A DNA stretch of 64,000 nucleotides from Thermoanaerobaculia bacterium (GCA_963664405.1 OY761158.1:1248001-1312000), one strand, 5' to 3'. Shown: positions 2,925-38,696, counted from the first letter of the stretch. A program made the numbers and translations. The notes: a model not told the origin generated them from the sequence alone.

Positions 2925-3125
2925 CATTTCTTCCGACGAGAGGTGTGGCACCCTTCGGGAGGGCAGGACTTTTTCGTCCGCCACAAGTGGCAATTTACGT
3001 GCGCCGCTAACAGAGGAGCCGCTCGACAGCAATGTCGTCGTGTACACTAGTGGGAAATCTACTCTAGGAAGTGGCTGACGCTCTTGGCTGCGGGTGCTGC
3101 CATGGGTCATTTGATAGGAGGAGTG

Positions 3126-3972
3126 ATGATGCGGCATCTTGTCTGCGCGTTCTCTCTGTCTCTGCTGGTGCTTCCTGCTGGTGCCTCTCCTCCACCCCCG
3201 GAGATGGTCGACATCCCGGAGTTTCAGGCTTGCCGCACCGTCGGGTTAATAACGCTGAACCCCCCGGAGCCCGACCAACCCGCGATGTTTGCACTAGACG
3301 TTGATCTCGACGCGTTCCCCCAAGCAAAGTGCAACGACGGTTCAGGAGCCGTCTTCTGGGTGCGCCGCTATGAGACCCTGGGGGCGCAGAGCGTGGAGAA
3401 CCAGAACAAGTGGTGGATCCACCTCCCTGGCGGTGGCGCTGCGGTGCGCGGCTTCGGCGCCGCCGACCGCTACTGCACTAACGCGTCGCGGATGAGCACG
3501 CTGGATATAGACAGGGGACCCATCGCACCGCGGAGCATCGCCGCCGGCCCCCCGGAGAACCGCTTCCGCAATTGGAACCACGTCTTCATCTACAACTGCA
3601 GCTCGGACCGCTTCGTGGGCGCCGCCGGCGCGGTGGCGACCAGCGGACAGCCCACGGGCGCCTCCGATCCGGTCGACTACACCATTCATTACAACGGCGC
3701 GCACATCCTCGACGCCGTCCTCGACACCTTGAAGCGCCACGACGGCGTCGTCAGCTACATCGACCGGGAGGGGAAGACACGGGTGATGCCCAACCTCGAC
3801 GCGGCCACGACCGTGATCTTCGCCGGCGAGGCGGCCGGCGCAACCGGCGTAATCCAGCGCGCCGATGATGTGCACGCGTCGCTTCTGGCGACGAACACCA
3901 ACTGCGTCGGCGAGTCCTGTGACGTCGACGTCGGTGCCGTCGTCGACGGCGCATATCTCCCCAGCCAGGAGA
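3126..3972 (+). pseudogene. 5' half of a secreted pectinacetylesterase/Notum-like protein, interrupted by the island
   Basis: GGAGG RBS, signal peptide, CNDGS, HLPGGG, NWNHVFIYNC; joins in frame to 46718..48118. Confidence 0.75.
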
Positions 3973-4009
3973 GCTGGCAACGCGGATTCAAATCCCGTTG
4001 GGGACACCA
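3973..4009 (+). other. 3' fragment of a tRNA (Glu-like) carried in the att site
   Basis: GCTGG-CAAC-GCGGA-TTCAAAT-CCCGT-TGGGGAC-A-CCA = anticodon 3' strand, variable loop, T-arm, acceptor strand; no 5' half. Confidence 0.75.
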
Positions 4010-4303
4010 GCATCTAACTTATTCTCTATTCTTAACTTACTCTTGATCCATGAATGAGTCTAGATTGTAGGCTCCGGGCTAGAGTAGGCAATAGGTAGGA
4101 TTCGAGCAGCGATTTCTCGCTTCTGGGTGGCGGATCAAGACGTGAGCACTGGCGGACTCTCGAAGACCCTTCTTGAGGTTCTTTCTACGCCCCGGTTTGC
4201 CAGCCGAGTCCTCTTCGCTGCGGCTGTCGGTGCGGTGGTCCCGCTCTTCGGTCAGTAGTGGGTTCCCAGCATAGAAGGTCTGGAGGGGGCATTGGGGTAC
4301 CTC

Positions 4304-5241
4304 TGAGCCGGTCCGGGAATTGTGGACACCTGTAGAAGGCGCGAGAATGCGCCGAGGAGGTGTTCGTGATGAGCAAGCGTCGTCGTTTCAGCCGTGAATT
4401 CAAGTTGGACGTGGTTCGAATGGTGATTGAAGGCGGCCACAGCGCGACAGAGGTGTCGAAGGATCTGGAGCTTCGTCCGGAGATGGATGGTTCGTCGCTG
4501 GGTGGCGCAATATGGCGAGGACCGCGAGCAGTCGTTCCCGGGTCTTGGCCGGCAGAAAGAGCGGGACGCAGAAATGGCGAAGCTCCGTCGCGAGCTGGGC
4601 CGCGTGCGGGAGGAGCGAGACATTCTAAAAAAAGCGGTGGCGATCTTTTCGGAGCCCCGTCGATGAGGTTCGCGTTCATCCGGCAGCATCGGGCCGAGTT
4701 CTCGGTGCGCCGGATGTGTTGCGTCCTCGAGGTATCGACGAGTGGGTACTACGCTTGGCTTGTCCGGCCGGAGAGCGAGCGGAGTCGGGGAGATCGCCTT
4801 CTCAAGTCGAAGATGGCAGGAGAGTTCAAGGAGTCGCGCGAGACGTACGGTTCTCGGCGACTGGGTCGATCGGTGGGGTGCGGTCGCACTCGTTCCCGAC
4901 GCTTGATGCGCGAGGGCGGGCTGGTGGCGAAGAAGACCCGGCAATTTCGTGTGTGCACGACCGACTCCTCGCATTCGCTGCCCGTGGCCGAGAACCTTGT
5001 GGCCCAAAACTTTACGGCCACCGGGCCCGACCAGATCTGGGCGGGCGATATCACTCAGATTCGGACGAGGGAGGGCTGGCTGTACTTGGCGGTATTGCTC
5101 GATCTGTTCTCTCGCAAAGTTGTGGGCTGGGCGAAGAGCTCCTCGCTCGAGTCGAGCTTCTGTCACCGCGCGTTAGAACGTGCCGTGGCGAGCCGCCGAG
5201 CGGGCCCTGGCCTGATCCATCACACGGATCGAGGCAGCCAG
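4304..5241 (+). mobile_element. IS3-family element, truncated (orfA frameshifted, orfB ends at HTDRGSQ)
   Basis: TG..GTGGACACC left end; RRRFSREFK; A7G slippery site at ~4627; WAGDITQI motif. Confidence 0.85.
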
Positions 5242-5880
5242 GGCGGATTCAACTGGTCGTCGCAACATCTCGTGATGGAGGTGTTTCGATGGGAGTTGGC
5301 AAGTGTCAGGGTGCGATTCGAGCGATGCGTGGCCAGATGTGGTCACCTGGCCGGCCCTCGACAGCGCGGCGCGAGGACCGGATCCGGTTCTGGGAGACGA
5401 TCGCTCGTGGGGCGTCCAGCGAGGACGCCGCAACAGAGGCTGGGGTGTCGCCGGCTGTCGGATCGAGATGGTTCAGGCAAGCTGGTGGAATGCGACCTAT
5501 CTCGTTGGCTCCGGTGTCGGGGCGTTATCTGTCGTTCGCCGAGCGTGAAGAGATCGCCATCCTTCACGCTCAGCATGTTGGGGTACGTGAGATCGCTCGA
5601 CGTCTGGGTCGTTCACCGTCGACGATTTCGCGGGAGCTGCGCCGCAACGCGGCGACTCGCAGCCGTGCCATAACCTATCGGGCCACGACTGCGCAGTGGC
5701 ACGCGGAGCGGCGCGCCAGCCGTCCGAAGGTCTCCAAGCTTGCCGCGAACGACGCCTTGCGTGAGTACGTGCAGAACCGCCTCGCCGGCGTGATCGCAAG
5801 GCCTGACGGGGAGCTGGTGCCGGGTCCGGAGGTGCGTTGGATCGGCCGTCGGCACGGCCGTCGCCAGGATCGGCGTTGGG
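5242..5880 (+). mobile_element. IS30-family element, 5' fragment
   Basis: GGCGGATTCAACTGGTCGTCGCAACA end; RYLSFAEREEI..LGRSPSTISRELRRN HTH. Confidence 0.8.
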
Positions 5881-5904
5881 CTAAGCCACGACGCTGGAGC
5901 ACCT

Positions 5905-6530
5905 TGCAAAAACTTCCCTAGAGCTTCCCGACCCCGACCGTCCGCGACGTGAACCACCGTCCCGTGACTGCTGTCCACGACCACCGTGACGTACTCGTGC
6001 CGGCGTTGAAACGACGTCTCGTCTACACCCAGATGGCGGGTCGGGCGCAGCGTTCTGCGGGCCAATCCTCGGCCCACGGCACGCTGCTGAACCCCGTCGA
6101 TCTGATCCCAGCTCAAACGCAGAAGCCGGGCAACAGCCGAGAGATTCGACTCTCGAAGCCAGTCGATCGCCAGCCGCTCGAACTGTGCCGTGAAGCCCGA
6201 GCCGACCTCGGCCCACGGCACACGAACCTGGCGCACGCCGTGATCTCCGCACTTCACACGAGGAACCTCCGCGACCAGAACCGTCATGTACTGCATCGTG
6301 TCGAGGTGACGCCACTTGCGCTCACGCGTGTCGTAGCGCGGACTCGCCGCTCCGCATTCCGGACACGCTAGCTTCCCTGACCCGTTCTCCAAGTGCACTT
6401 CCACCGTCTCTGGACCTAGCTCGACATCTGTCACATGCCACGGCTCCTCGATCCCAAGAAGCTGGGCGTAAAGCTCTCGATCTCGCATACTCGCAGCATA
6501 CGATCAACCCACACGAAATCCCGAAGAGCC
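5905..6530 (-). mobile_element. ISL3-family element, 5' fragment
   Basis: GGCTCTT end at 6530; CPECG zinc finger, WRHLD, GVDETSF. Confidence 0.85.
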
Positions 6531-6842
6531 TTTTTAGGATCGCATGCTCCTGCTTCACTCGAGCCAGCTCGCGACGAAGGCGCTTGACCTCCTCCGCGGG
6601 ATCGGGCTCCGATCCCAACGACTCCCGGTGCTCGAAATGCTTGCGCCAACGGCGAATCTGCTCCGCACGCACATCCAACTCCCGAGCCACCTCGACGACC
6701 GAACGGCCCGTCCCGTAAGCGAGGCGGACCGCCTCGCGCTTGAGCTCCTCGCTGAATCTCCTCCGTGACTGACCCATCTCCTGAACACCTCCAAGTCCAT
6801 TCTCGGACTTTTAGCGGTGTCCACCAAATCGGGGTAGCTCCA
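6531..6842 (-). mobile_element. IS3-family left end + orfA
   Basis: TG..GGTGGACACC end; RRRFSEELKREAVRL; ends at ILK in the A-run. Confidence 0.8.
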
Positions 6843-6959
6843 CGTAGCCCCCGAGGGCATTTCCGCCCGGGCAAGCTGGGTACACAGCTCTTCGAAGCCC
6901 TTGTCTCGGCCGCCGTTCAGGGGCCTGATACTGTTCCAGTCAAGAGCAACTCGGCTCAT
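6843..6959 (-). pseudogene. N-terminal remnant of a nuclease-like protein (possible defence nuclease-ATPase)
   Basis: DWNSIRPLNG..GFEELCTQLAR resembles N-termini of Mrr/REase-like STAND proteins; cut by the IS3 end. Confidence 0.45.
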
Positions 6960-7003
6960 AGGAGAAGCGCCTCAGAAGTGGATGTCCGTTGCGTCGTTTT
7001 AGG

Positions 7004-7490
7004 GCGTTGTTGCACGAGTCGTGACTGGCCCGCACGATGCCCAATCGAAAGGGTCCTCACCTGCCGTTGCGATACGACACTGGTCGGCCGAGGGCGGTCA
7101 TCCGATTGAAGGATCTCACAGCCGAGGACGACCTTACTCCCCTGCCCAGCTGGACTACGGGCGCGAAGGCCATCTCCGATGATGGACTTGTAGCGGAAGA
7201 ACGCGTTCTCCACCCGGCCCTGACGATGGTACCCTGACGCCCGCTTCCAGCGGCGCTGGCCGAGCGTCTTCACCAAATGGATTGTCCGATCCCGCGCGGG
7301 CGACCGCGGGCCGTGGCCAGACACGTTCGCCGTCCTGGCCGGTGGGACGACGACCATCGCACCCCGCGCCCTTGCGGTCTCGTAGAGGCGTTGTTGCACG
7401 AATCGTAATTGGCCCGCGCCGATCTCGATCCACAGCTTCTCCACCGGCCGATGCGGTACGACATTGGCCTGCCCAGCCCAGTCATCTGAT
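7004..7490 (-). mobile_element. IS5-family transposase 3' fragments with two tandem right ends
   Basis: WKRASGYHRQGRVENAFFRYK; GCGTTGTTGCACGA repeated at ~7004 and ~7388. Confidence 0.7.
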
Positions 7491-7494
7491 TCAT

Positions 7495-7684
7495 AGTAGG
7501 TCTGCTCGCTGATCCCGAGCTTCTTGTACATCTGTGGGATGTGCAGCCCTCGGCTCAGCTCGACCTCGGCCTGCCGCAACTTGCTGACGATCTGTTCCGT
7601 GCTGTAACGCTTGGTGGGCATCCCCGCCTCCTTTCGCCCAAGAGCCTAACGCTGGATCTGGACTCGTCCAAGGGGGGCAGGTCA
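7495..7684 (-). mobile_element. IS3-family (IS407-like) left end + orfA fragment
   Basis: TGACCTGCCCCC end; KRYSTEQIVSKLRQAE. Confidence 0.75.
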
Positions 7685-7716
7685 GATTCGACGGAGTGTT
7701 CGCTATATGAGAACAT

Positions 7717-7830
7717 TTGGGTGTGAAGGCGGTCGGGAAGATCGAGTGGGCGACCAAGGCCGTGAAGGACATGCATCGCCTCGCCGCCCCGGCCCGCGAG
7801 CGGATCGTCGCCAAGGTCGAACAGTACGCG
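7717..7830 (+). pseudogene. RelE/ParE-like toxin N-terminal fragment
   Basis: KIEWATKAVKDMHRL..RERIVAKVEQYA. Confidence 0.5.
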
Positions 7831-8258
7831 GCGGTTCGGCTCTCTTGTGCCTCTGTCGGCCAGCCTCGCGTACGCGTCGCTGGCCGACGTTCGATCGTCG
7901 TTCGGTGACAACGGCAGTCGTGACGACGTGCCCCGCACTTCAGCCGATTCGGCCCATGGAGAATCCGCGTAATGCCTTGATAATACAGTATATTATGGAC
8001 GGAGTTGGACGACTTGAAATGTTGGTGGATCCATTATGGTCATCATGGCGCTGACGACTGCTAAAGATCTATAAATACCTGGTATTAATAGACTTACTGC
8101 TTATGTATCAGACGTGATTCCCTCATTCACTCCCGCTTTCTGAACGGGAATCCATCCGACTGTATGAGAAGTCCGTGGACGAGTTCTGAGTAATCAACCG
8201 AGGCCGCGCGGCCGGGCGTGAGATCGGTATGTTCCAATCCGCGCTGGCCGATCCGGTG

Positions 8259-11399
<3,141 letters not shown>

Positions 11400-11407
11400 T
11401 AGGACCT

Positions 11408-12634
11408 TTACGGCATCCCCGGTACGGTTGCGCGCAAGCGAAGTTCACCGGAAACAAGCTGTGGCAGAAGCAAGTCACGTAGTCCAGCTAGATATTGGTT
11501 TGTTTTTTCCTTATTTAGTATCGAATAGTGAATCGGCACTATTGTTTCATCGAACAGACGCCTGAGGTGTTCTCCCACGTCGATTATCTTCAACGCACTG
11601 AAAGTGGATTTGTTCATATTCTGAAAGACTGAACCTCCACTGCCAACCAGCATTATTTCCGACGCGAGCCGCCTACAAGACCAATACAAATATGTGCCGG
11701 CCCTGCAATCGTGCGGAACGATGCTATTGATTTGCTGGTTGGTCTAAGTCTCTTGATGGTTCAATACGACTAGCCCAGGTGTGGCGATGCAGCTAACCGA
11801 AATGATTCCAGGTGGTAGCGTCTTATTACCCTGCGAGTCGGCTCCATACTTGGAAAGCATAGTCTCAGTCTTGACTGCATAGACCTTGCCGTGCATATCG
11901 GGGATCTTCAGGAAGGGAATATCATTTCCGTAGAAATCCAGATTGCGAGTGCTCGGAGTCTTCCCGGTAACAATCTTACCGAAACTGCTTAGTGGTTTCA
12001 CTTTCCACCCCGCCGGTATCTCACCCAGTTCGGACTCGACAAGCCGATCAGGAAACAGGTCGGAAAGATGCCGGGGTAATCCCGTATCGCGGCCCTTCAT
12101 CTTCGCCCGGACCGGATCGAAATCGACGAACCAGGACTTGAACAGCGCCTGGGCCATCGCCTCCAGTGTCTCGTTCATCCGCCGGTTCAGATCGATCTTG
12201 TCGTCGAGGTTGCCGAGGACGTGCGCGATGGATCGCTGTTCGTAAGGTGATGGAACTATAGCTGGGAGGCCGTGAATATGGTTGCGATTCAGCGTTGGTA
12301 CACTACTTCCAACATTGAATTGTACAAGATCAAGAGATTTCAGAAAGTAGTAGCAGAACCGAGGATCATTTCCATTGAAGTTCTTTACCCATAGGGTCGT
12401 ATTCAGTGGCCAAAAGTCTTCCTCAATAAATTGACCTCCACCAATGCTTCCTGAACGACCGATCACGACACCGGGCCCTTTTACTTTCGCTTCTTCGTGC
12501 CTACCAACGGGACCTGTGGATGCAATGACTGGATAGTTACCTAGCTTGCGTTGGGATGTGGGTAAATCGAATCCTCTTTGCAATGTGACCACATCTCCAA
12601 GCGTCGTATAGCGCCACTCACTCCACACAGCCAA
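11408..12634 (-). pseudogene. hsdS: Type I R-M specificity subunit with in-frame TAG at 11744-11746
   Basis: Two-TRD layout; the frame continues TNQQINSIV after the TAG and ends with [14 protein letters not shown]. Confidence 0.9.
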
Positions 12635-15600
12635 GGTCCCTTAGACTGGCGGCAATTGCCGTGTCGAGCCGTGCACCTTCAGTTTGCTGCTCGTGAAGCT
12701 GTGCCACGAGCCGTTTCATCTTGTCCTCGAACGGTTCACCGTCGTCCTCTTGGGGCTCTACGCCGACATAGCGGCCTGGCGTCAGCACATAGGCGTGCTT
12801 GCGCATCTCATCCAACCCCTCTCTGCCAAGATGCTTGAGACATCTCGCCACCCCTCAAATAGAGTAGGGCGGAGAGGTGAAACCTGATGTCTGAAGAGAG
12901 GAAGATGGAAGAGATGAGATCAGCAAGCACGTCCATTGCGGTCCGGGGCGAGGAGGAGGTTTCCCAGCTTCCCCCGTGCGCCCAGCTGGGGTCCGCGGAA
13001 GCGCCGACGGGCGAGCGTAGCGAGCACGGAGACGCAGCAGCGGGCGCCATCTGGGCGCGGCCGAGCCCTGTGTTGGATCCTGAGGTGGCCGCCAAGCCAA
13101 CGCGGCGGACCTTCACGGCCGAGTACAAGCTGCGAATTCTCGAAGAAGTCGATCTCGCCACGCCTGGCGACATCGGCGCGATCCTGCGCCGCGAGGGATT
13201 GTACAGCTCGCACTTGACGGCCTGGCGCAAGGCACGTAGGACCGGCGCTCTGCGAAGGCTGGGCCGAAAGCGAGGGCGCAAGGCGAAGCAGGCCGATCCA
13301 CAGGCCAAGAAGATCGAGCAACTGGAAAAGGAGCTCTCCCGTACTCGCGAGGCGCTACGCAAGGCAGAGCTGATCCTCGAAGTGCAGGGAAAAGTTGCCG
13401 GGCTGCTGGGCTTCAACCTCGAGGACGGGAGGAACTCCTGATCGCCGCCGCCGAGTTGGCGTTGCAGGTCGGCGTCAAGCCGTCCTGTGTCGCTCTCGGC
13501 GTGGCACGGGCGACTCTGTACCGTCGTCGGAAGCCAACTACCGGGCCGCAGCCCCGGCCAACACCCGCCCGGGCTCTGAGCGAGGACGAGCGCCAAGCCG
13601 TCCTGGACGTCCTGGACTCGCCTCGTTTCGTCGACCGTGCCCCCGCCGAGGTCGTCGCCACGCTCCTGGACGAGCAACGCTACCTCTGCTCGGAGAGGAC
13701 CATGTACCGCATCCTCGCTGCGCGAGCTCCGGTGCGCGAGCGGCGCAACCAGCTTCGCCACCCCGACTACACCAAGCCGGAGCTGGTGGCGGCCGCCCCC
13801 AACCAAGTCTGGTCCTGGGATATCACCCGGTTGCGGGGTCCTGAGAAGTGGAGCTACTACTACCTCTACGTCCTGCTCGACATCTTCAGCCGCTACGTCG
13901 TCGGCTGGATGCTCGCTCCCCGCGAGAACGCCAATCTCGCCGGTCGCCTCATCGAGGAGACCTGCTGCAAGCACGACGTCAAACCTGAGGTGCTCACCCT
14001 GCACAGCGATCGGGGCTCCCCGATGACCGCCAAGTGCACGGCTCAGCTACTCGCCGATCTGGGACTCACTCAGTCGCTCAGCCGGCCCCAGGTCTGTGAC
14101 GACAATCCCTTCTCCGAGGCCCAGTTCAAGACCCTCAAGTACCACCCGAGCTTCCCCTCCCGATTCGCCAGCCAGGAGGCCGCCCAGGCTTTCTGCAGGA
14201 CCTTCTTCCCTTGGTACAACACCGAGCACCGCCACGGTGGGATCGCACACCTGACCCCTCACGGCGTCCACCACGGTCGAGCGGAGCAGGCCCTTGCCGC
14301 ACGGCAACTCGCGCTCGATGCCGCCTTCCAAACTCACCCAGAACGCTTCCTCCGAGGGCGACCCATCGTCTCGCCTTTACCTGGAACCGTATACATCAAC
14401 CGGCCTGACGATACGCAGGCCTCGACCGAAGAGGACCTTCACTAATTTATGACTCGAGGTGTCTCAAAGTTCTTGACAGGTTCCGAACGATGCGCTCTTG
14501 CAGAAGCCGGGAATGTCGGCGCAGGCGGCGCTAACGTCTGCCGTGCGCCAGGCGTGGTAGGTGCCGGCGATACGGGCAATGTCCTCGTCGGTCAGCTCAC
14601 GGTGCGTCCGGTCCACCATCCGGCCGAGCTTCCTCGCGTCGATGAACAGGATCTCGCCCTGGCGCTTGCGTCGGCGCGCCAGGAACCACAGACAGGCGGG
14701 AATCTGGGTGGAGTAAAAGAGCTGACCCGGCAGTGCAATCATACAGTCCACTAGCTCCGCCTCGATCAGGTTCTTCCGAATCTCTCCCTCGCCCGATTGG
14801 TTTGAGGACATCGACCCGTTGGCGAGCACGAACCCCGCGACGCCCTTCGGCGCTAAGTGGTGGACCATGTGCTGGACCCAGGCAAAGTTGGCGTTGCCCT
14901 TCGGCGGGATGCCGTAGCGCCAGCGCTTGTCCTCGACCAGCCTGTCGCCGCCCCAGTCCGAGACGTTAAACGGGGGATTGGCGAGGATGAAATCGGCCTT
15001 CAGGTCCGGATGGCGGTCGTTATAGAAGCTGTCGCCGTGGGCGATCTGCCCCCCAATGCCTCGTATGGCCAAGTTCATCTTCGCGAGCCGCCACGTCGTG
15101 TAGTTCGACTCCTGCCCGTAGATCGAGATGTCGCCGCGCGCCTTGCCGCCGTTGCCGTTTCCGCTGGAGTGGGCGCGAATGAACGAGATCGACTGCACGA
15201 ACATTCCCGAGGAGCCGCAGCAGGGATCGTAGACCCGCCCTCGGTAGGGCTCCAGCATCTCGACGAGCAGCTTGACGACACAGCACGGGGTGTAGAACTC
15301 GCCGCCTTTCTTGCCCTCCGCGCTCGCGAACTGCGAGAGGAAGTACTCGTAGACGCGGCCGAGGACATCTCGGGAGCGTGCTTCGGCATCCCCGACACGG
15401 ATGTTTCCGATCATGTCGATCAACTGACCGAGACGCTGCTTGTCCAAGGCAGGCCGCGCGTAGTCCTTGGGCAGCACCTCCTTCAGCCCCGGGTTGTCGC
15501 GCTCGATCGCGGCCATGGCCTGATCGACGGTCTGGCCAATGGTCGACTGCCGCGCCTGGGCCTTCAGGTGCGGCCAGCGGGCTTCCTGCGGCACCCAGAA

Positions 15601-15840
15601 GATGTTCTCTGCGATGTATTCATCGCGGTCCTCCGCAGCGTCCTCGCCCCACCCGGCCAGCACCGACGCGTGACGCTCCTCGAAGGCGTCCGAGATGTAC
15701 TTCAGGAAGATTAGGCCGAGCACCACATGTTTGTACTCGGCGGCATCCATCGAGCCTCGGAGCGCATCAGCCATCGCCCACAGCTCGGCCTCGTAGCCGG
15801 TTGTTGCCCCGCTATCGGAACGTGTGCTCGCTGTCTTCAT
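12618..15840 (-). pseudogene. hsdM: Type I R-M methyltransferase interrupted by an IS
   Basis: [18 protein letters not shown]; removing the IS restores ..[19 protein letters not shown]. Confidence 0.93.
12817..14485 (+). mobile_element. Complete IS3-family element (orfA 12887..13441, orfB 13456..14445), 3-bp target duplication AAC
   Basis: IRs TGCCAAGATGCTTGAGACATCTCG / CGAGGTGTCTCAAAGTTCTTGACA; WSWDIT, HSDRG; AAC at 12814-16 and 14486-88. Confidence 0.92.
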
Positions 15841-16439
15841 TAGCTCTCGTCGGTTTCCCTAGTGCCATGTTGCGGTCCTCCAGATATCGACACGCCTGGG
15901 CCGCTTCCCTCCGATCCTGTAGGCGTTTCTTGTCGACCCGGCCAACCTCATTAGGTCGACGGCAGGCAACATATGACAAATGTCGTGCCGCCGTACAGTC
16001 GGTCGAGGCAGTTGCCATCTCGAGAGATTTCCGGTCCGCAATGGACCAACGTGCCCAAGGAGCAGCAGGGATCGGATACAGCCGTCGGAGGCCCGTCCCC
16101 TCGCCAGGGCTTCGCGTTTGTACTCGGCTAGGATGCGGAGTGCGTCACGGGGCATGAACTGCCCCGGATAGAACGCACTCTGGCCGACCGCGATCGAGGT
16201 TCTCCACAGGCGCTCCGGGAGCAGCTCGAGGCCATCCGCTGGCGTGGCTTGGTCCGCCTCTAGTACGTCGCTGGAACTCTAGGGACATCGCCGTTTTGCC
16301 CGTTGTTGACACCGCAGAAGCGGGCTCGTCAATGTACGGGCATGGAGATTCATGGCGGCCCAGGGTTCCAAGCGTCGGGGCGTGTCTGGCGCGCTTGAGG
16401 CGGGAGAGCCAGCCTACCCTTTGGGGCCACGCTTCGCGG

Positions 16440-16480
16440 GTCCCCGGCAGGGGCTGGCGGGGGGCTGTGCCCCCTCTGAT
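16440..16480. other. Possible oriT upstream of the mobilisation genes
   Basis: GGGGGGCTGTGCCCCCT hairpin resembling the ColE1-type oriT context, directly before mobC. Confidence 0.35.
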
Positions 16481-16500
16481 CCCCCCAACGGCAACAGCAC

Positions 16501-16749
16501 ATGAGGGGCGCTGGACGCGACGTGTGGGTGAAGATCCGCGCCCGCGAGGCGGAGCGTGCCGAGTGGCACGCGAAGGCGAGCTCCGCAGGGTTCACGCTGT
16601 CGGATCTCGTGCGCCGGTCGGTGGGCCGGGCGCGCACCTGGACCGTGGCGCACGCCGAGGCCGTCGAGATCGTCGCCCACCTGGTCGCCATCGAGCGGGC
16701 GCTCGCGGCGTTGGCCCCCGTCGGCCGCCCCGACCCCGATGCACATTAA
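16501..16749 (+). pseudogene. mobC: MobC/MbeC-like relaxosome protein, short and probably internally deleted
   Basis: RDVWVKIR..WHAKA..TLSDLVR ribbon-helix-helix; overlaps the relaxase start. Confidence 0.6.
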
Positions 16750-17050
16750 GTTCCTGGCCCGCGGAACGGGCTCGGCCCCGGCGGCAGCCGACTACCTGCT
16801 CGGGGCGCGGGATGCGACCGGGCAGCCGCGCGAGGGCGTGGAGGTCCTCCGGGGGGATCCCCATCAGGTCGCCGTGGTGGCCGACGCGCTGGCGTTCGAG
16901 CACAAGTACACGTCGGGCGTGATTGCCTGGGCACCGGACGACACTCCGACCGACGCGCAGATCGGCGCGGTCATCGATGCCTTTGAACAGACGGCCTGGG
17001 CGGGGCTCGAGCCCGACCGCTACGCCTGGGCGGCCGTGGTGCATCGGCAG
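16739..17050 (+). pseudogene. MbeA-like relaxase, 3' truncated
   Basis: MHIKFLARGTGS..ADYLLG..EVLRGDP..KYTSG..WAAVVH. Confidence 0.75.
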
Positions 17051-17267
17051 CACTCCAGCGCCGATACGCAGAAACCGTTGAGGCAGCGCGTGCGGTTGCG
17101 CGCGTTCGTGAGTCCAGCGCGAGAACTGCTGCGGCTCTGATGGCGTCTCTCATGTCCGAGTTGCTTGGAAGTGACGTATCGGATCGTGGGACCTGCGGCC
17201 CTTCGCTGTTAGGATGCGAGCGGGACGTTGGGAACCGCACGAACGCAGGGACGAGACCTGACATCAC

Positions 17268-18185
17268 TTGCTATCGGAAATGCTAGAATTCCTGGACGTA
17301 AGGCCGACAATTGTCGCATTGTCCAGCATTGTCGTCGCTCTGCTTGCAGTGGGTGCAGCAGCGGCGTCGGCTTGGTTCGCCAGGATGCAGTTTAGAGGCA
17401 GCTTGGTAGTCTTTTGGCGACCACGAGAGGCCGGCTTTACTACAATCGATGTAGTAGCACGCAATGTTGGAGGCGGATCAGTACGCAGTGTGGAGGTTAC
17501 GAGTGATCAACCTGACTTCCAGAGACTTGAGTTCGCAGAATTGCCGGTCGCAACTGAGTACTGCATCGATACAATGAGTGGAAAATCAAGTCCACAAGAG
17601 TACTACACGAGACACGGATGGGGGCGACGCCTGCGATGGAGGCCACGAAGATGGCGAATCGATCCGGCGAAGTTCGCTGGAGTCCAGACGCGCGGCGTGA
17701 CAGCACTGCGAAAGATCTCAGATACATTGGAGAGTGTGGAGAGAAAGGTAAGGGATTCGCCTGTTCTACGGAACGCCGGCAATACGATAGGGATCTCACG
17801 TTCAAACGAAGAGACGTGGGTGCTTCCATCTGGGGTAATCGCTGTACTTCTTCCGGATGACTCGGAGACTCTCCGGACACATATCCAAGACGAGACGGTG
17901 TTGGAAAGCGGCTGGAGACAGAACAGACACAGCGGAACTTCCATAGGCACGCACGCGCCAAAAGACGTCATGCGAGTAGTTGTTGATCCAGAACGGCTGT
18001 CGCCCGAAGAAGAGAAGAAGCTGGCATCGTACCTGGACTATGGAGAGATCACCCTTCACTATAGCCGCCAGCAGGCGCGCTACCGGATTCTGACAGTCAT
18101 TAACCCACAACGAGGTGCACGAATAATCGAGCGCCACGTGGTGTACGAGCAACCCGCTGCAAGCGAAGAGGACAACAGCGAGTAG
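17268..18185 (+). CDS. Hypothetical protein with an N-terminal TM helix
   Basis: 305-aa ORF, lower GC than its flanks. Confidence 0.6.
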   Translation: MLSEMLEFLDVRPTIVALSSIVVALLAVGAAAASAWFARMQFRGSLVVFWRPREAGFTTIDVVARNVGGGSVRSVEVTSDQPDFQRLEFAELPVATEYCIDTMSGKSSPQEYYTRHGWGRRLRWRPRRWRIDPAKFAGVQTRGVTALRKISDTLESVERKVRDSPVLRNAGNTIGISRSNEETWVLPSGVIAVLLPDDSETLRTHIQDETVLESGWRQNRHSGTSIGTHAPKDVMRVVVDPERLSPEEEKKLASYLDYGEITLHYSRQQARYRILTVINPQRGARIIERHVVYEQPAASEEDNSE

Positions 18186-18349
18186 CAGCGTGAGCACGGG
18201 CGCAGGAAGCAGGGCCGAACCGCGACCGCGACCCGTCCCCGGCCATCTACGGACGGTGCTTGTGGTACGACCGAATGCAAGTCAAAACGGGGGATACAAC
18301 GGGGGAAACGGCCGCTCTGAAACGACGTAAAGCGCGTATTTTCAATATG

Positions 18350-19422
18350 TTATAGGTTTTTGGTCTCAGAAGCCCTGGAAGCTATCTCCCGCAACACGTC
18401 GATCTCCAACGCGCGAAGCTCGCGGTAGGCGATGATGAGGAAGTTGCCGCAGCCGCACGCCGGATCGAAGAGCCGCAGCGTGCCGAGCTTGTCCCGGAAC
18501 TTCCGAAGGTCGGCCATGCTGCGGCCGTCCCGGCGGGCCTGCAACCGCCGGAACTCGGCCCGCAGGTCGTCGAGGAACAGCGGCTCGATCACCTTCAGGA
18601 TGTTCTTCTCCGTCGTGTAGTGCGCCCCTTGGGCGCGCCGGTCGGCCGGCTCCATGACCGACTGGAACAGCGCGCCGAAGATGGCCGGCGAGATCGCCGT
18701 CCAGTCGAATCGGCCCGCGTCGAGCAGGGCCTGACGCATCGAGGCGTCGAAATCCGGGATGCGAAGCGTTTCGGCGAATAACTCGCCATTGACGTGTGGA
18801 AAGCGGGCCAGATCGTTGTCGAGCGCCCGCGACCGCCGATCCGGCGGCGTGTTCAGCGCCTGGAACAGCCGCGCCATCCACGGGCCGAGGTCGGCGCCAT
18901 CGGCGGCCGTGCGTTCCTCGATGAACTGGAGGAAGATGTCGCGCGGCTCGAAGATGCCGGTGTCGTCAGCGAACAGGCAGAACACGGTCCGTACCAGGAA
19001 CAACTCCAGGTCGTGACCATCGTAGCCGGACGCCTTCAGCGCAGCGTGCAGATGCGCGATCAACTCGGACGCCTCGATGTTGACCGGGTCCTGGTCGCGG
19101 AACGTGCGGCGCTGCACGCCGATGATGAACCCGAACTTCTCGACGTGCTGCGGCAGGTCGGCGAGCACGAAGCGTGTTTCTTCGCGTTCGTCGCGATCGA
19201 GCAGCTCGAACGACCGGAAGTCGCAGAGTAGCTGGTAGCGGGGGCGGTCGCGTTCAGGCAGTGCGTCGAAATACGAACCGGCCTGCTGACTCGCGGCGAC
19301 CAAGTCGCGCCCGGCGCTCTTCTGCTCGACCAGCAGGACGCCGGGCCAGAAGAGGTCGATGAAGCCGGACGTATCGTCTAGCCGCCGAACGTGCTCCTCG
19401 TAGCGGGCTACCGTGCGCCGCC
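18350..19422 (-). pseudogene. MmeI-like type IIG/IIL restriction-methyltransferase fragment, both ends lost
   Basis: GFIDLFWPG, LFADDTGIF, ISPAIFGALFQ, GAHYT, DPACGCGNFL. Confidence 0.85.
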
Positions 19423-19425
19423 GGG

Positions 19426-19923
19426 TCAGTTTGGGCGGTCGGGTCTGGAATCATCGCCCCTCAGATACCTCGCCCCCAAATCCTCCTCCTCGTCGACGGG
19501 CTCGGAGATATCTAGCGCTTGTGCGTCTTTTGGTGATAAGCCAAGATCGGCCTGAAACGAACGCATCAATTTATACTCCATGTTTAGAGGCTGTAGTAGA
19601 TGATGCTTTGCCATATTAACTTGCCCCGAGGAGCCCTGGCGCAGCATCTCAGGGCCGTCTCTTTTTAGTATAGCTTCCATCTCCCGGCAACGGGCCCAGG
19701 CTGCGCACCAGCCAGCCATAGCGCCGAGGTATTTAGCCCGGTGTGTGCCATCCTCCGCCATGCGGAAACACAGCCAGCGCCATATCCTCTTTGCCTGGTT
19801 CGACAGTTCAGTAGGTGGCTTCGGGTGCACGGTGTCCGCCGGGGGGCGCTGAATAACCCGAGACGCCCGAGCCGTCCCTAGTAGCTCCTTCTGATGTTGC
19901 GTTTTGCGTCGGTTATTCGGCAC
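19426..19923 (-). CDS. Phage terminase small subunit (P27-like), copy 1, followed by a terL stub
   Basis: PKPP.ELS..AK.IW, ..DLGLSP; paralog of 38081..38569. Confidence 0.8.
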   Translation of the reverse strand: MPNNRRKTQHQKELLGTARASRVIQRPPADTVHPKPPTELSNQAKRIWRWLCFRMAEDGTHRAKYLGAMAGWCAAWARCREMEAILKRDGPEMLRQGSSGQVNMAKHHLLQPLNMEYKLMRSFQADLGLSPKDAQALDISEPVDEEEDLGARYLRGDDSRPDRPN

Positions 19924-19980
19924 GGGGCCAGCCTAGATTAGGAAATTTCATTGTGGCACGATATACAGAACACGGGCGCG

Positions 19981-20123
19981 CGCTGGAGGGGCGTCAGCCA
20001 GGCGATGTCGTAGGTGCCCTCCAGATCCGGCTTGCCGTCGGGCCTGCGTGGAATGTCCCCTTCGGCAGCCAAGCTCGGCAGCGAGATCGCGCCGAGAAGA
20101 AAGCACAGGACCGTGTGTTTCAT
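19981..20123 (-). pseudogene. 5' fragment of a secreted protein, paralog of 61775..62827
   Basis: Signal peptide, then IPRRPDGKPDLEGTYDIAWLTPLQR, then an abrupt fusion to the terS upstream region. Confidence 0.75.
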
Positions 20124-20185
20124 GTCATTTTCGTCAATCCTTCTTCGCCATTGATTTCGACGCGAATGCGACCCTCCCTGCGCTC

Positions 20186-20971
20186 TCACAAATCCAGCTC
20201 TAAGCCTCCCGGCTCTTCCAGCTTGCGGACTTCCCACAGAAGCTCCGGCGGAAACACCTCCTCGTAGATGCGCTTCATCGTGACCTCGTAGTCCCACTCT
20301 GTCGACAAGGGGCGCCAAGCCAGCGCGTCGAGCTGGGCGCGGACGATTCGCCGCATCGAGGCGATCGAGTCGCTAACGTCGACGAGGCCGATATCACGCA
20401 TCGCGAGCATGAAGCCACTCACCCCCATGGTCCCGGTGACCGCATTACTTAGCAAGGAAGAGACTTCTCGTCGAGACAGTCCCGATGGCAGCACCAGGTC
20501 CCCACTCTCGAATGCCTCCACCAACACCGCCGACCTGACGCGAAGATAGTCCTTCCTTATCTCGGCCGTCCGCTGCGTCTCCTGCGACGAGGCACGATCG
20601 ACGATGTTTGCTGTGAGGGCGATGCTCCCTAAGCTAAAGGGGTGAGGGATAATGGCGTTGATCTCGGTGATAGCGACGAAGCGCTCGCGGGGCCGAGCGT
20701 CGAAGGCCTCCACCCGTCTTATCAAGAGGCAGCGCAGTTGAAGAAGCTGGGAGTAAAGCGCTAGCAGCACATCTTCCTTGGTGGGGAAGTACTTGTAGAC
20801 CGTGGGTCGCGAGTATCCCGCCACCTTGGCGAGTCGCAGCATGGAGAGGGCGACGATCCCCTCCTCCCCCAAGATCTGTCGCGCCGCAGAGAGGATCTCC
20901 GCTCTGCGCCGACCGCCTTCCCTCTCTCGACGAGCGACAGTCTTCTTCTCGAGATCGATCTCTGTCGTCAT
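20186..20971 (-). CDS. TetR/AcrR family regulator
   Basis: LAKVAGYSRPTVYKYFPTKEDVL. Confidence 0.92.
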   Translation of the reverse strand: MTTEIDLEKKTVARREREGGRRRAEILSAARQILGEEGIVALSMLRLAKVAGYSRPTVYKYFPTKEDVLLALYSQLLQLRCLLIRRVEAFDARPRERFVAITEINAIIPHPFSLGSIALTANIVDRASSQETQRTAEIRKDYLRVRSAVLVEAFESGDLVLPSGLSRREVSSLLSNAVTGTMGVSGFMLAMRDIGLVDVSDSIASMRRIVRAQLDALAWRPLSTEWDYEVTMKRIYEEVFPPELLWEVRKLEEPGGLELDL

Positions 20972-21195
20972 AGGGCGCTCCCCGCGTTGGCTCTACGGCA
21001 CGCTGCGAATGCCGATCGGTGTCGAGCGCAGCGAAGAACTCAGAGTACCTCTCGGCTGACACCTTGACTCCAACACTGTGTAAGAATACAGTCTCATCTG
21101 TACCGCATCAAGCATGCGTGGAAGAACGAGGTCCGAACCGTATCCGCTCCTAGGCGGCTTTACGTAGATTTCTCAGTAGCGAGCAAAGAACAATT

Positions 21196-23970
21196 ATGGA
21201 GAATCACAGAGTGAACACCACCACTCTCAAGGCCTTAGTCTCGATCCTCATCATGCTCGCATTCGCTCAGCTGCCGCTGTGGGCTGACGGTCCGCAGACA
21301 GGGGTGATCGAAGGCCGTGTGCTCGACGCGCAGGGCGGGGCCCTGCCCGGTGCCACGGTGACCCTGGCCGGTCCGCAGGGCGAGAAAACCGCGATCACCG
21401 ATGACGCGGGTAAGTATCGTTTCTCGCTATTGCTGGATGGCGGCTACACCGTCACCGCCGAGCTGGAGGGGCTGGGTAAGGCCGAGGCTTCGACGTCCCT
21501 CAATGTCGGCGATCGCCGTAGCATCAACCTCACCCTGGCGGCGGGCACCGCGGAGACCATCACCGTCACCTCCGAGGCCCCCCTGGTCAACAAGTACGAG
21601 ACAGCGTCGACGGCGACACTCGATGCGGAGGTCGCGGAAGCGCTATCGTTCAGCAGTCGCAACTACATGGACAACATAGGCCTTCTGCCTGGCGCAGTGG
21701 TCTCCGACCGACTGGCGACCCAAAATGGTTTTTCCGGCGGTCGCACCGGCGATTCCCTTACCTTCATGGAGGGCGTCGATGTCAGCCAAACCAGGCGCGG
21801 CGGTGAGTTTCGCATCAAGATACCGACTACGGCGGTCGCCCAGACCACCCTGCAGACCGCCGGACTGGGAGCGGAGTACGGCCGGGCCTCCAATGGCCAG
21901 GCCAACACGGTGATCAAGACCGGCACCAACAACTTCCACGGCGAGGCCCTCTATATTGCGCAGAACCCCTCGTGGCGCGAGGACTGGCATACCGCTCCTT
22001 TTAGTGAGATCGCGAAGCCAGACGAGATCGTCAACAGCTTCGAGGTCTCCCTCGGTGGCCCGATCTATCGCGATCGTGCGTGGTTCTTCGCCTCCAAGGC
22101 CAACACTTCCGAGAACAGATACAACTCGACGCAGGACGGCGTGGTATTCGACGTGAGCAACTACGCCGATCCGCTCCTCGCCAAGCTCAACGGTCAACCT
22201 GGCGACAGTCATCAGCTCTCCTTTACCGTCATCAAGGCGCCGAACGAAGATGTCGCCGACGTCGGCAACCCGGGGGACCTGTTCGCCTTTAACGATACCC
22301 GCCGCGACAACGACGTGGTTACGCTGTCGTGGGACTACGCCGTAACCCCCTCCATCTTTCTGGAGTTCAAGGCTGCCGAGATCGAGGATACGCTGCGCAG
22401 AGGGTCGTTGATTACCCGCGAGATCGACCCCAATGCCCCTCCAGACTCCCCCAAGCGAACCGGATTTCGCTATCACGACCTGGCCAGCGGCTTCAAGTAC
22501 AACTTCAACGCACACGGAAACGGTAACGGTTTCGTAAGCGATCCCCGCGAGCAGCTCAATGCCGCGGCAACGATCTTCAGGGGCAACCACGAGCTCAGGG
22601 TCGGCGCCGACCGCCATGACCTGGGTGCTACCGTCACCGTAATTGTCGGCACCGAGTACGCCGGACGGGGCTACGACGAAAACTCGCCCACCGGCTTCGC
22701 GACTCCGGTAAGGAAACGGGTCTTCGAGCAGGCGACGGGGGAGCCCGAGGTCACCAGCGATCTCTCGACCTTCTACGTCCAGGATCGCATCGACATCGGA
22801 GACAAATGGGTCGTCACCGCTGGACTCCGTCTCGAGGACCAGGAGCTCTACGACAACCTCGGTGTACTGGTCAACGACTACAGTGAGCTGGCGCCTCGCT
22901 TGACTGCCGTTTACGACATGAGGGGCGCCGGCGAGCTCCTGCTCCGCGGCACCGCCGGGCGCTACTACAACCTTTTCCTCCTGCAACTCCCGCTGGGGCA
23001 GTTCTTTCAAGGTGCAACCGGTCGCAACATCTACGACCAGTTCCTCTACAACCCCGTGAGCGGGGCCTACGACACCTTCCAGCGGACGGTCAACACGTCG
23101 GTCGACAGGGAAGCGGGGGCAAGCCTCACCCCCGAATTCCAGGACGCCTTCTCGGTCGGGGTCGATTGGCAGCTCAGCAACCTCTGGGTCGCCAAGGCAC
23201 GCGTCGAATACAGGGAGAACAAGGACGTGTGGACGGTGTCGACGCAGTGGGACGACGCCGGTGAGCCCATCTTCGACCTTCGCACCTGGGACTCGGGAGG
23301 AGCACAGCAGATCGCCGACCGCTGGGGCGTTCCCTCTCCCGGCCGCATGTTCCGCGAGCACAAGGGGCTGGTGCTGGAGCTCAACCGTCGCATGCGCGAC
23401 AACTGGACCGTGCGCGCCAACATCGCTTTCAACGACACCAAGGGCAATGTCGATAATCGGACCAACCGCGACGTCACCTTCGATGGTCTCGGCGGCCTCG
23501 AAGTGGGCACCTTGGTCTCCGACCTCACCAGCCGGTTCAGGGACGGCCGAGTCGCTCTCGCTTCCAATCGCGCGATCGTCTTCAACCTCGTCGGCATCAA
23601 GCGATGGCAGATCGGCAACCACAGCCTGAATACGGGCGCCTACTTGAGCTATCGCGAGGGCCAACCCTGGGGGCTTCAGGCGAACGCCAACATGTTCAAT
23701 CCGGAATCGCTCGAGACGCTGCGGGTACGTACCCTCTTGGAGTCCGCCGATACCAACCAGCTTCCGGACCCGACCGTTCTCAATCTCAATGCGAGTTGGG
23801 TCTTCCCGATCAAGGGATCTTTCGAAGGTCAGCTGGGTGTGGAAGTCTGGAACGCCACCAACGAGGACGCCCAGACCAATGTGAATGCTTTAAACGGCAA
23901 CCCGAGGAGCGCCATCACCTCGTACGTGATTCCGCGCGAGTACCGGGTGAACGTAGGGATTCGCTTCTGA
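21196..23970 (+). CDS. TonB-dependent receptor with a carboxypeptidase-regulatory-like N-terminal domain
   Basis: GRVLDAQGGALPGATV, AEYGRA, KTGTNNFHG, C-terminal Phe. Confidence 0.92.
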   Translation: MENHRVNTTTLKALVSILIMLAFAQLPLWADGPQTGVIEGRVLDAQGGALPGATVTLAGPQGEKTAITDDAGKYRFSLLLDGGYTVTAELEGLGKAEASTSLNVGDRRSINLTLAAGTAETITVTSEAPLVNKYETASTATLDAEVAEALSFSSRNYMDNIGLLPGAVVSDRLATQNGFSGGRTGDSLTFMEGVDVSQTRRGGEFRIKIPTTAVAQTTLQTAGLGAEYGRASNGQANTVIKTGTNNFHGEALYIAQNPSWREDWHTAPFSEIAKPDEIVNSFEVSLGGPIYRDRAWFFASKANTSENRYNSTQDGVVFDVSNYADPLLAKLNGQPGDSHQLSFTVIKAPNEDVADVGNPGDLFAFNDTRRDNDVVTLSWDYAVTPSIFLEFKAAEIEDTLRRGSLITREIDPNAPPDSPKRTGFRYHDLASGFKYNFNAHGNGNGFVSDPREQLNAAATIFRGNHELRVGADRHDLGATVTVIVGTEYAGRGYDENSPTGFATPVRKRVFEQATGEPEVTSDLSTFYVQDRIDIGDKWVVTAGLRLEDQELYDNLGVLVNDYSELAPRLTAVYDMRGAGELLLRGTAGRYYNLFLLQLPLGQFFQGATGRNIYDQFLYNPVSGAYDTFQRTVNTSVDREAGASLTPEFQDAFSVGVDWQLSNLWVAKARVEYRENKDVWTVSTQWDDAGEPIFDLRTWDSGGAQQIADRWGVPSPGRMFREHKGLVLELNRRMRDNWTVRANIAFNDTKGNVDNRTNRDVTFDGLGGLEVGTLVSDLTSRFRDGRVALASNRAIVFNLVGIKRWQIGNHSLNTGAYLSYREGQPWGLQANANMFNPESLETLRVRTLLESADTNQLPDPTVLNLNASWVFPIKGSFEGQLGVEVWNATNEDAQTNVNALNGNPRSAITSYVIPREYRVNVGIRF

Positions 23971-24074
23971 CCTGGGTTGCAGTGACCAGCCGGTGACGGA
24001 CGCCCGCGAGGGCTCCTCGCTATTCGTGGCGGACCCTCAGCTCTCAGTAGGGAATCCGTAGGGGGCTTCTCTCG

Positions 24075-25967: not shown

Positions 25968-25971
25968 CCAC

Positions 25972-27237: not shown

Positions 27238-27251
27238 GGAGTAACTACGCA

Positions 27252-29063: not shown

Positions 29064-29283
29064 CGCGTCTGAAAGTACGGTCCGACCGCCCGTATTACCG
29101 CACATCATGACTAGACCAGCGTTTCCAAAGTTCGTGTGCAATAGCTCGAGGTCATTCTGTTCGCTGGCCAGGCGCGCCGACGCAGGCATATTGGGCAATA
29201 TGTCGAGGAGGCGAAACGCCGTCAGCGGACAGAAGGGGCCGAGATATGTGCGCGAACTTTGGAAACGCTCGTCTAGCGCACAA

Positions 29284-30303: not shown

Positions 30304-30384
30304 TGGCTATCATTTCCTCCGCCTCTAGTTGTCTTTTGGCGCCGAGGACGGCGCACTTTGAGCTTGCTTCCTATTCGCTCCGGG
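30292..30384 (+). repeat. ~90-bp imperfect direct repeat, copy 1 (contains palindrome)
   Basis: Matches 32032..32122. Confidence 0.9.
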
Positions 30385-30557
30385 AAACGGCTCAGACAGA
30401 TTCTGCAAGTCTCGGGTGAGGTTGGCGCGGAGAAATACTCGCTTGTCCGAATACTCGCCCGCGCTCAATCCTGACTGAGAGTCGATGTCCTCGCGCCATC
30501 TCCGGCGCTCGAGCCGGGTTAGTATCTGAAAACCACCACACCAAGGAGGGCGTCACG

Positions 30558-32030: not shown

Positions 32031-32031
32031 C

Positions 32032-32122
32032 CTCCGGAAATGATGGCTATCATTTCCTGCGGCTAGTTATCTTTTGGCGCCGAGGACGGCGCACTTTGAG
32101 CTTGCTTCTTATTCGCTTCGGG
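32032..32122 (+). repeat. ~90-bp imperfect direct repeat, copy 2
   Basis: Matches 30292..30384. Confidence 0.9.
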
Positions 32123-32915: not shown

Positions 32916-33054
32916 GAAAACCGTTGGAAGCTGCGATATTCTATCGTAGATTGTTTTACCGAGATATTTGCCTACCAGGGCGGCTTTTCACCCTGAAAGC
33001 CGTCGACAACCATGAAGGGCAGAAAAACGGACGTTTTCTTGACCCTGTATTCAG

Positions 33055-38690: not shown

Positions 38691-38696
38691 GGCCCT

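Follow-up and report, generated by a model that had tools for sequence, protein, structure and literature searches.

How does an island that carries the 3' half of a tRNA at one of its ends come to lie in the middle of a protein-coding gene? In the stretch of DNA analyzed here (the window, 64,000 nucleotides of a Thermoanaerobaculia bacterium genome), a pectinacetylesterase-like gene breaks off at a stem-loop and resumes 42.7 kb further on. An earlier note, made from the sequence of the window, had taken this junction for the work of a tRNA-targeting integrase redirected to a coding-sequence mimic of an anticodon arm. The analysis shows a clear instance, in nature, of the known use of secondary attachment sites: an island whose integrase family normally enters tRNA anticodon loops lies within an esterase gene, where its site has the shape of a tRNA-Glu anticodon arm. 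The features on which the argument rests are collected in Table 1.

Table 1. Position of the island, its ends, the interrupted gene and the genes of the island discussed in the text (window coordinates).
Feature	Position	Strand	Remarks
Interrupted host gene (pectinacetylesterase-like), N-terminal part	3084..3972	+	Pfam PAE, E 1.7e-15
Left junction core (attL)	3955..3977		ATCTCCCCAGCCAGGAGAGCTGG; holds the perfect stem-loop 3961-3977; 20/23 identical to 46707-46729
Inferred 7-bp crossover (overlap) segment CAGGAGA, left copy	3966..3972	.	Anticodon-loop position; identical at both ends
Island body	3973..46717	.	42,745 bp; contents by Pfam scan, limits from both junctions
Island-borne tRNA-Glu(UUC) 3' half	3973..4009	+	34/37 identical to resident tRNA-Glu(ttc)
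Int-distal arm (P' arm) of the island attachment site	4010..4116	+	Homologous to the DNA after the resident tRNA-Glu gene
GTAGG repeats (n=3), candidate arm-type integrase binding sites, P' arm	4067..4099	+	Cluster count
DUF3987 protein (P4-alpha-type helicase-like)	41569..43119	-	Pfam DUF3987, E 1.6e-87; single copy in genome
Primase (CHC2 zinc finger + Toprim)	43092..44078	-	Pfam Zn_ribbon_DnaG, Toprim_3, DUF7146
85-aa HTH_17 protein, candidate excisionase	44272..44529	-	Pfam HTH_17, E 5.7e-11
P4-type tyrosine integrase, 406 aa, full length	45310..46530	-	Arm-DNA-bind_3, Phage_int_SAM_3, Phage_int_M, Phage_integrase
GGTAGG repeats (n=4; two inverted, two direct), candidate arm-type sites, P arm (int-proximal)	46558..46596	.	
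Right junction core (attR)	46707..46729		ATCTACCCAGACAGGAGACCTGG; overlap copy at 46718-46724, 188-194 nt from the integrase start
Interrupted host gene, C-terminal part	46725..48118	+	Aligned residues of the G004 homolog: about 337 to 774

The split gene and the two ends of the island

The N-terminal part of the host gene corresponds, by alignment, to residues 98-323 of a 778-aa homolog that is uninterrupted in a genome of the same family (G004), and its frame reads on into island DNA as far as a stop at 4044-4046. Because the N- and C-terminal parts abut on this uninterrupted protein, they represent one gene split in the middle. As judged from the reading frames, the insertion splits and inactivates the pectinacetylesterase-like gene, and precise excision would restore it. 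A protein search with the C-terminal part returned 40 proteins, whose matches, apart from the window's own product, cover the C-terminal repeat domain only.

The empty site occurs in nature, with exactly one copy of the core. In a sponge metagenome run (X1), a 233-nt contig aligns to 3810-3977 with 7 differences and continues past 3977 for 30 letters, 29 of which equal the sequence right of 46729, the left flank being joined to the right flank. Three of the 7 differences fall within 30 nt of an end of the aligned piece; the diagnostic positions are 3959, 3965, and 3973. The occupied site was found with 0 differences in contigs of three other runs (3000-4418 in X4 and X6, 3391-4053 in X9); these runs may include the sample behind the genome assembly and thus lend no independent support. 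An exact-pattern metagenome scan with the 25-nt right host flank gave 0 matches.

The host DNA around the island has undergone recent duplications, with paralogs of an esterase (BD-FAE; 367-1095 and 51448-52147) on either side of the island and paralogs of a sulfatase (48130-49042 and 52804-53717) near it, at 85-89% DNA identity. At 1592-2924, a PQQ-dependent dehydrogenase is spread over two overlapping frames (1592-2278 and 2052-2924), which may reflect a frameshift.

The 23-nt cores of the two junctions are identical at 20 positions and differ at three: 7 bases before the loop, directly before it, and directly after it. On the + strand of the left junction, CCAGC (3961-3965), CAGGAGA (3966-3972), and GCTGG (3973-3977) come first; CAAC, a T-arm-like stretch and GGGGACACCA, which reaches 4009, come after them. 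The 5-bp stem CCAGC/GCTGG that the earlier note described around CAGGAGA is confirmed, perfect at the left junction only, with the right-junction arm CCAGA...CCTGG pairing 4 bp; the loop is the same at both ends, as had been claimed. Within the window, at least three GTAGG within 70 nt are found in the two repeat clusters of Table 1 and nowhere else, and the P-arm cluster is one of 4 in the 6.78-Mb genome that hold at least four GTAGG within 60 nt. Since the GTAGG clusters of the window are confined to both ends of the island, these ends belong together. The tRNA-like half sits between the core and the GTAGG repeats, which is its expected place on an attachment-site arm.

Behind the integrase lies a replication and integration module, present in the genome as a single copy, in which the primase and the DUF3987 protein are accompanied by the 85-aa HTH_17 protein, which may be the excisionase, and by a 220-aa protein without a family match. 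Considered as a possible P4-like or phage-inducible satellite, the island has the integrase, the HTH_17 protein, the primase, the DUF3987 protein, and two Terminase_4 (small-terminase-like) genes; no helper phage was identified. By Pfam and BLAST, the cargo further comprises type I restriction-modification, many insertion sequences, an MmeI fragment, several transposases, and a Tn3-family segment with a resolvase and metabolic genes.

The type I specificity-gene region (window 11744-15840) is broken by a 1.67-kb insertion sequence (12815-14488) that has six more copies in the genome at 95.6-98.5% identity. The Terminase_4 genes (19426-19923 and 38081-38569), 83% identical to each other, flank about 18 kb of cargo; behind the resident tRNA-Glu gene, a full and a partial copy (2632191-2632676 and 2611681-2611914) flank about 20 kb, and another copy belongs to an island adjoining tRNA-Gly(tcc) at genome position 4477797. 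A 12.3-kb block (window 19974-32265), 98.8% identical to genome 1632810-1645108, holds genes for TetR, a TonB-dependent receptor, DUF3604, an enolase-superfamily enzyme, a PQQ dehydrogenase, a metallo-beta-lactamase-fold protein, and a sulfatase. As a resolvase and a Tn3-type transposase come after it, the block looks like a recent transposition or duplication. Short repeats at 29107-29277, 32026-32122, and 32205-32268, with units of about 170 nt (85-99% identity), 95 nt, and 64 nt, recur in very many genome copies, some of them as tandem arrays, and have the look of miniature mobile elements. A recent burst is suggested for the insertion sequence at 39046-41059, which encodes a Rhodopirellula-type DDE transposase: nearly all of its about 30 genome copies are 99-100% identical.

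The integrase clade and the tRNA-Glu ancestry of the island

The integrase carries the arm-binding (Arm-DNA-bind_3/DUF4102), SAM-like core-binding, and C-terminal catalytic domains of the P4 type, all four Pfam domains scoring above the curated cut-offs (Arm-DNA-bind_3 at E 1.2e-15, Phage_integrase at 3.6e-27). Its translation contains TGMRAGE, HDLRH, LGHSS, and ARYAH in that order, which may be, judged by the expected order rather than by an alignment with a solved enzyme, the catalytic Arg...His-x-x-Arg...His/Trp...Tyr positions.

Insertion at the anticodon loop of tRNA genes is the habit of the clade to which this integrase belongs. When 300 genomes of the order were searched, 117 gave integrase matches at E<=1e-40, and among these the best-scoring 29 foreign loci (40-59% identity) were studied; 14 of the relatives' loci were read by eye. 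The closest relatives are 58-59% identical, and none beyond that level was found in scans of genome contigs (11 loci, best 27% over long matches) and of metagenomes (14 loci, best 45%). At 25 of the 29 best-scoring loci, BLAST matched one of the tRNAs of the window genome no more than 500 nt upstream of int. For 24 of these 25, the matched part extends from tRNA position 26-47 to the 3' end, in divergent orientation to int, the tRNA 3' fragments lying 135-275 nt from the int start codon; L033 has a whole tRNA-Thr in the opposite orientation. The tRNAs concerned are those for Arg, Glu, Gly, Thr, Phe, Cys, and Lys. Four loci (L050, L041, L048, and L052) are without a tRNA match. At L050 (G293:C2), the sequence upstream of int follows tRNA-Phe for 13 nt, counted from the anticodon loop, after which the likeness decays and there is an insertion; the integrase is nearly identical to a tRNA-Phe-associated one, and of the three such integrases in G293, two are separated by 15 kb.

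Two relatives are particularly informative about the insertion point. In G136, a 16.7-kb island occupies tRNA-Glu(UUC), and 45 nt, counted from the first loop base onward, are common to its two ends. The window enzyme is, in a maximum-likelihood tree of 30 integrases, sister to that of L025 (support 97/92), whose int-side junction reads ATCAGA-CTTTCAA-GCTGG followed by the rest of the tRNA-Glu 3' half. The int-side junction of the window reads CCCAGA-CAGGAGA, at the same distance from int as in L025. Mapping the insertion sites of the closest integrases, which had been proposed as a check on the redirected-integrase idea, yielded displaced tRNA 3' fragments, with their start in or close to the anticodon loop, at 24 of 29 loci and a sister at tRNA-Glu(UUC).

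The tRNA-Glu 3' half of the island consists of the anticodon-stem 3' strand, variable loop, T arm, acceptor 3' strand, and CCA, and departs from the resident tRNA at 3 of 37 positions, of which two belong to the T stem. Run on the whole 6.78-Mb genome, ARAGORN reported one tRNA-Glu(ttc), at c[2652992,2653068], with the anticodon arm CCAGC-CTTTCAA-GCTGG, so that the stem CCAGC/GCTGG, which the earlier note had wished to see compared with the genome's own tRNA-Glu, is indeed there. By BLAST, window 3972-4116 matches genome 2653029-2652885 at 81.5% over 146 nt (E 8e-30). Because the match to the resident locus continues for about 107 nt beyond the tRNA 3' end, the likeness to tRNA-Glu is no chance effect. 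The reading of a tRNA-Glu-like 3' half that begins at GCTGG holds, with a host tRNA(UUC) matching the fragment at 34 of 37 positions and close relatives of the integrase using tRNA-Glu. The possibility that the left junction is itself a tRNA gene was dropped: the junction is chimeric, ARAGORN called zero tRNA genes in the 64-kb window, and Rfam gave no tRNA match at E<=1 in 3850-4150.

As the arm of the resident tRNA-Glu is intact, the primary site sequence CCAGC-CTTTCAA-GCTGG is still in the genome. On its 3' side lies an IS-rich stretch with type I restriction genes, a DprA-like gene, and a small-terminase-like gene that shares 94% identity with one of the window island; an integrase was sought in this stretch and none was found. 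From this gene content, we read the stretch as what probably remains of a related island that occupied the true tRNA-Glu site, one that leaves the primary site present, and with this reading 3973-4116 would be the matching arm of a sister element. When 3978-4300 was compared with the 300 genomes of the order, only its tRNA-Glu part (the first 30-39 nt) matched outside its own genome, G148 being among the genomes concerned.

The resident tRNA-Glu(UUC) (L002 19793-19869) has a G1-U72 wobble atop the acceptor stem (3' strand ...GGGGAT). The island copy reads ...GGGGAC, which would pair, as does an orphan fragment elsewhere in the genome, and the 3' half of the resident tRNA may derive from the island remnant behind the gene. 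The orphan, a tRNA-Glu T-arm and acceptor fragment ending in GCCA, lies outside the window (L001 9720-9747, genome 6516719-6516746), between PLD-like and protein-kinase genes with no integrase nearby, and 24 nt of it are identical to the island copy, including both bases that separate the island copy from the resident tRNA. This fragment may be a trace left by some other event; considered as the missing right end of a tRNA-Glu island, it showed neither an integrase in its vicinity nor BLAST similarity to the P arm.

The crossover segment and the insertion history

Normal tRNA insertions share at least 45 nt between their ends, and the crossover point can therefore not be located within the block. 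The off-target insertion in the window, with 7 exact shared bases lying between mismatched neighbors (3965/46717 and 3973/46725), places the crossover of the clade on the anticodon-loop position without an experiment. The codons before the loop are CTC and AGC at the left junction, CTA and AGA at the right junction. In 1696 long high-GC3 frames of the genome, CTC and AGC are used 44.7 and 18.4 times per 1000 codons, CTA and AGA 4.7 and 4.3 times, CTC being 9.5x commoner than CTA and AGC 4.3x commoner than AGA. Because CTC and AGC are host-like, the part of attL before the loop comes from the host, in agreement with the earlier note's view that the host gene supplies CCAGC; because GCTGG at attL matches the tRNA and the arms of the relatives, it is island DNA. 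With host bases before the loop and an island base after it, the exchange took place within the 7 shared bases. A crossover left of the loop was rejected, since the identity block of the relatives starts at the loop and CTA/AGA are 4 to 10 times rarer than CTC/AGC. We infer for this integrase an overlap of 7 bp at 3966-3972; about 7 bp is the usual size for the enzyme class, according to the part of bioRxiv 10.1101/2023.11.06.565760 that deals with overlaps. Should the empty allele in X1 carry G where the window has position 3973, this event would leave the overlap's right limit unfixed.

CAGGAGA and the sister loop CTTTCAA differ at 5 of 7 positions, the first C and last A being common to both, and CAGA before the loop and CTGG after it are kept. 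CTTTCAA was probably the ancestral loop of the lineage, as read across a long branch (relatives 58-59% identical). Site-specific recombination passes only the overlap between partners, so an exact 7-base replacement would mean an overlap taken from the target, and the replacement of the 7 loop bases by host sequence points to an exchange of the crossover segment. This is what the earlier note had meant by an overlap converted to the new target: exactly the 7 loop positions depart from the sister and equal the host.

Taken as a whole, the account that we favor as reasonably probable is that a tRNA-Glu-derived island had its overlap swapped and then re-inserted, with matched overlaps, in the gene. 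The island descends from elements inserting in the anticodon loop of tRNA-Glu(UUC), the retained 3' half being the piece with which such elements rebuild the tRNA, and the crossover segment of the lineage would have changed from CTTTCAA to CAGGAGA, the sequence of the site inside the pectinacetylesterase-like gene. The change most likely came about in two stages. A rare insertion at the secondary site across unlike overlaps would have been followed by excision, giving island copies (circles) with the host's 7 bp, one of which would have re-inserted, with matched overlaps, at an empty copy of the same site. The outcome of these two stages would be identical overlaps at both ends and unconverted mismatches directly outside them.

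The identity of the two overlaps bears most directly on the order of events. After recombination across unlike overlaps, replication would leave one end with each overlap; here both ends have the host version. The most likely partner in the last integration is therefore an attP with an overlap already equal to that of the gene. A rare mismatched event must still have happened at least once in the course of this history, and ordinary integrases do perform such events at low frequency. The relaxed overlap homology that the earlier note drew from the junction is not implied, as mismatched overlaps should leave unlike ends, as in ICEBs1, and here the ends are identical; the other parts of its retargeting reading, the tRNA-Glu origin, the coding-sequence target, and the overlap swap, largely hold, the shift from tRNA to coding sequence being supported by the tRNA-Glu ancestry together with the split pectinacetylesterase-like gene.

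The host site itself resembles the primary stem-loop, with CCAGC (5/5 with the tRNA stem) and CCTGG (4/5) 7 nt apart. For genome scoring, the island core was assembled by combining the left 18 nt of the right-junction core with the right 5 nt of the left-junction core; the flanks of the host-gene site share with it CCAG and CTGG arms 9 nt apart and match at 13 of 16 flanking bases. On these 16 bases, 66 positions of the genome reach 13/16, so a first, overlap-blind insertion had many candidate sites. Scored with the present overlap, the reconstructed empty site would be the best match in the genome at 20/23, followed by sites at 19 and 17. These scores fit a first accidental hit and a subsequent locking on; a longer adaptation to the gene is also compatible with them. 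No circle junction was seen among the loose ends listed in the read contigs of the X runs and no second copy of the island was found, so the attP of the island is reconstructed rather than read.

Several points count against the two-stage account, besides the reconstructed attP, the possible G in the X1 allele, and the many insertion sequences of the island. The genome still has an intact primary site in the resident tRNA-Glu arm; a lineage locked on to the gene is less expected if the island behaves like ICEBs1, whose copies leaving secondary sites returned to the primary site (PMC3715440, in its part on secondary sites); and the ancestral CTTTCAA is read across a long branch, from relatives 58-59% identical.

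A different history, which we regard as unlikely, makes the island a long-standing specialist of the host gene, with the whole 23-bp attP core evolved to the coding site and the tRNA-Glu half a decaying relic; the crossover could then lie in CTGG right of the loop and not in the 7 loop bases. Such a history would suit a core matching at 20 of 23 positions and at 9 of 11 bases left of the loop (the canonical G136 island reaches only about 3 of 9 there), 3 changes in the 37 nt of the tRNA-like half with two in the T stem, as expected without selection, and a G that the X1 empty-site allele might carry at the 3973 position. An exact 7-base block replaced between mismatches is, however, better explained by an overlap swap, and a 13/16 flank match occurs at 66 genome positions by chance. 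Nor was any other island found in the host gene, whose homologs occur in 5 of 41 related genomes (own genome counted) and of which the G004 homolog was read through and is uninterrupted, and the arm DNA of the island is absent from the other 299 genomes of the order that were searched.

It also seems quite improbable, in the version that goes with the earlier note, that a single integration by a tolerant integrase brought an attP with CTTTCAA into the gene across mismatches at 5 of 7 positions, both heteroduplexes then being corrected to the host sequence. One event would suffice, and the two loops have their first C and last A in common; identity in the overlap of about 7 bp is normally needed and heteroduplex overlaps are sometimes functional (bioRxiv 10.1101/2023.11.06.565760 and PMC10111431, in the parts concerned with overlap identity), and the ICEBs1 Int inserts at unlike spacers (PMC3715440, in its description of secondary insertions). 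By the same description, however, replication without repair gives one end with each overlap, whereas both ends here are host-type, and the strands to be corrected at the left and right junctions would be opposite ones. Moreover, the intact resident tRNA-Glu arm should be the preferred target of an attP with CTTTCAA. Repair of both heteroduplexes toward the host is possible, with more assumptions than two stages.

A rearrangement or homologous recombination that put a tRNA-Glu fragment and foreign DNA into the gene is very unlikely: the genome is rich in insertion sequences and repeats and has the orphan tRNA-Glu fragment without integrase at 6516719, but the core is repeated directly at both ends, the integrase lies 183 nt from one end in the geometry of 24 relatives, matching arm-type repeats occur at both ends, and an empty site with exactly one core copy exists.

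Integrase-based genome-engineering tools rely on retargeting by a change of overlap, and the two-stage account would add a wild example consistent with an overlap change alone moving an integrase to a new site. Retargeting driven by the overlap has reportedly been documented for lambda as well. The claim is a modest one, the phenomenon having been documented for ICEBs1 (PMC3715440, in its part on secondary sites), of which the island would be a natural case, and published work (PMC10111431, in its part on target sites) already describing integrase clades in which tRNA targets give way to gene targets or the reverse.

We think it unlikely that the island, naturally reprogrammed by a 7-bp overlap swap, is still mobile and cycles precisely in and out of the esterase gene. 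If it did, the cycling would switch that gene on and off reversibly, and it would illustrate a way for tRNA-targeting integrases to acquire coding-sequence targets in nature. Insertion sequences are so numerous in the island that it may no longer be able to move.

Comparison with known systems

The integrase of ICEBs1 from Bacillus subtilis is not known to be of the P4 type. Its primary site, as described in the parts of PMC3715440 on attachment sites, is a 17-bp stem-loop in a tRNA gene, with 5-bp inverted repeats around a 7-bp crossover spacer, and secondary sites inside genes, used once the primary site had been deleted, resemble this stem-loop. The window island is like such an ICEBs1 secondary insertion in occupying a gene site that resembles the primary tRNA stem-loop and in disrupting the gene. 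It is unlike ICEBs1 in that the primary site is intact in the window genome, where that of ICEBs1 was deleted, and in having the same spacer at both ends, whereas the ICEBs1 insertion in mmsA, by the description in the same source, has unlike spacers and left and right ends that differ. Those parts of PMC3715440 also describe ICEBs1's poor excision out of secondary sites and the return of excised copies to the primary site. A further difference is that the window island keeps the full tRNA 3' half.

Anticodon-centered attachment sites in tRNA genes make up class A of the Islander collection, in which islands of this kind number 2083 (PMC4383910, in its part on site classes). With this class the island shares a tyrosine integrase, a crossover in the anticodon loop, and an island-borne tRNA 3' part (as set out in that part of PMC4383910). 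The relatives of its integrase likewise show a regenerated tRNA together with a displaced fragment. Unlike class A islands, the window island has a protein-coding gene as its target and does not restore it.

The two-stage route has a counterpart in the lambda site-affinity (saf) variants attributed to Weisberg and co-workers in 1983, in which excision from a secondary site is said to have given a changed overlap and a new site preference. As in those variants, the attP overlap of the window island would have taken the sequence of a secondary site, which the element would then prefer; unlike them, with their laboratory selection, lambda Int, and non-tRNA primary site, it is a wild island with an integrase of another family, and its route is a proposed one.

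Integrase clades that move between tRNA and protein-gene targets, such as those of satellites in prophage late genes, fis, and hpt (PMC10111431, in its part on target sites), and SGI1 with its secondary site (PMC2297512) resemble the clade of the window integrase in having tRNA targets in some members, coding or intergenic targets in others, and an identity core of about 7 bp. In those cases, the new targets are recurrent and often conserved; the window, by contrast, holds a single mid-gene case with no repair of the gene.
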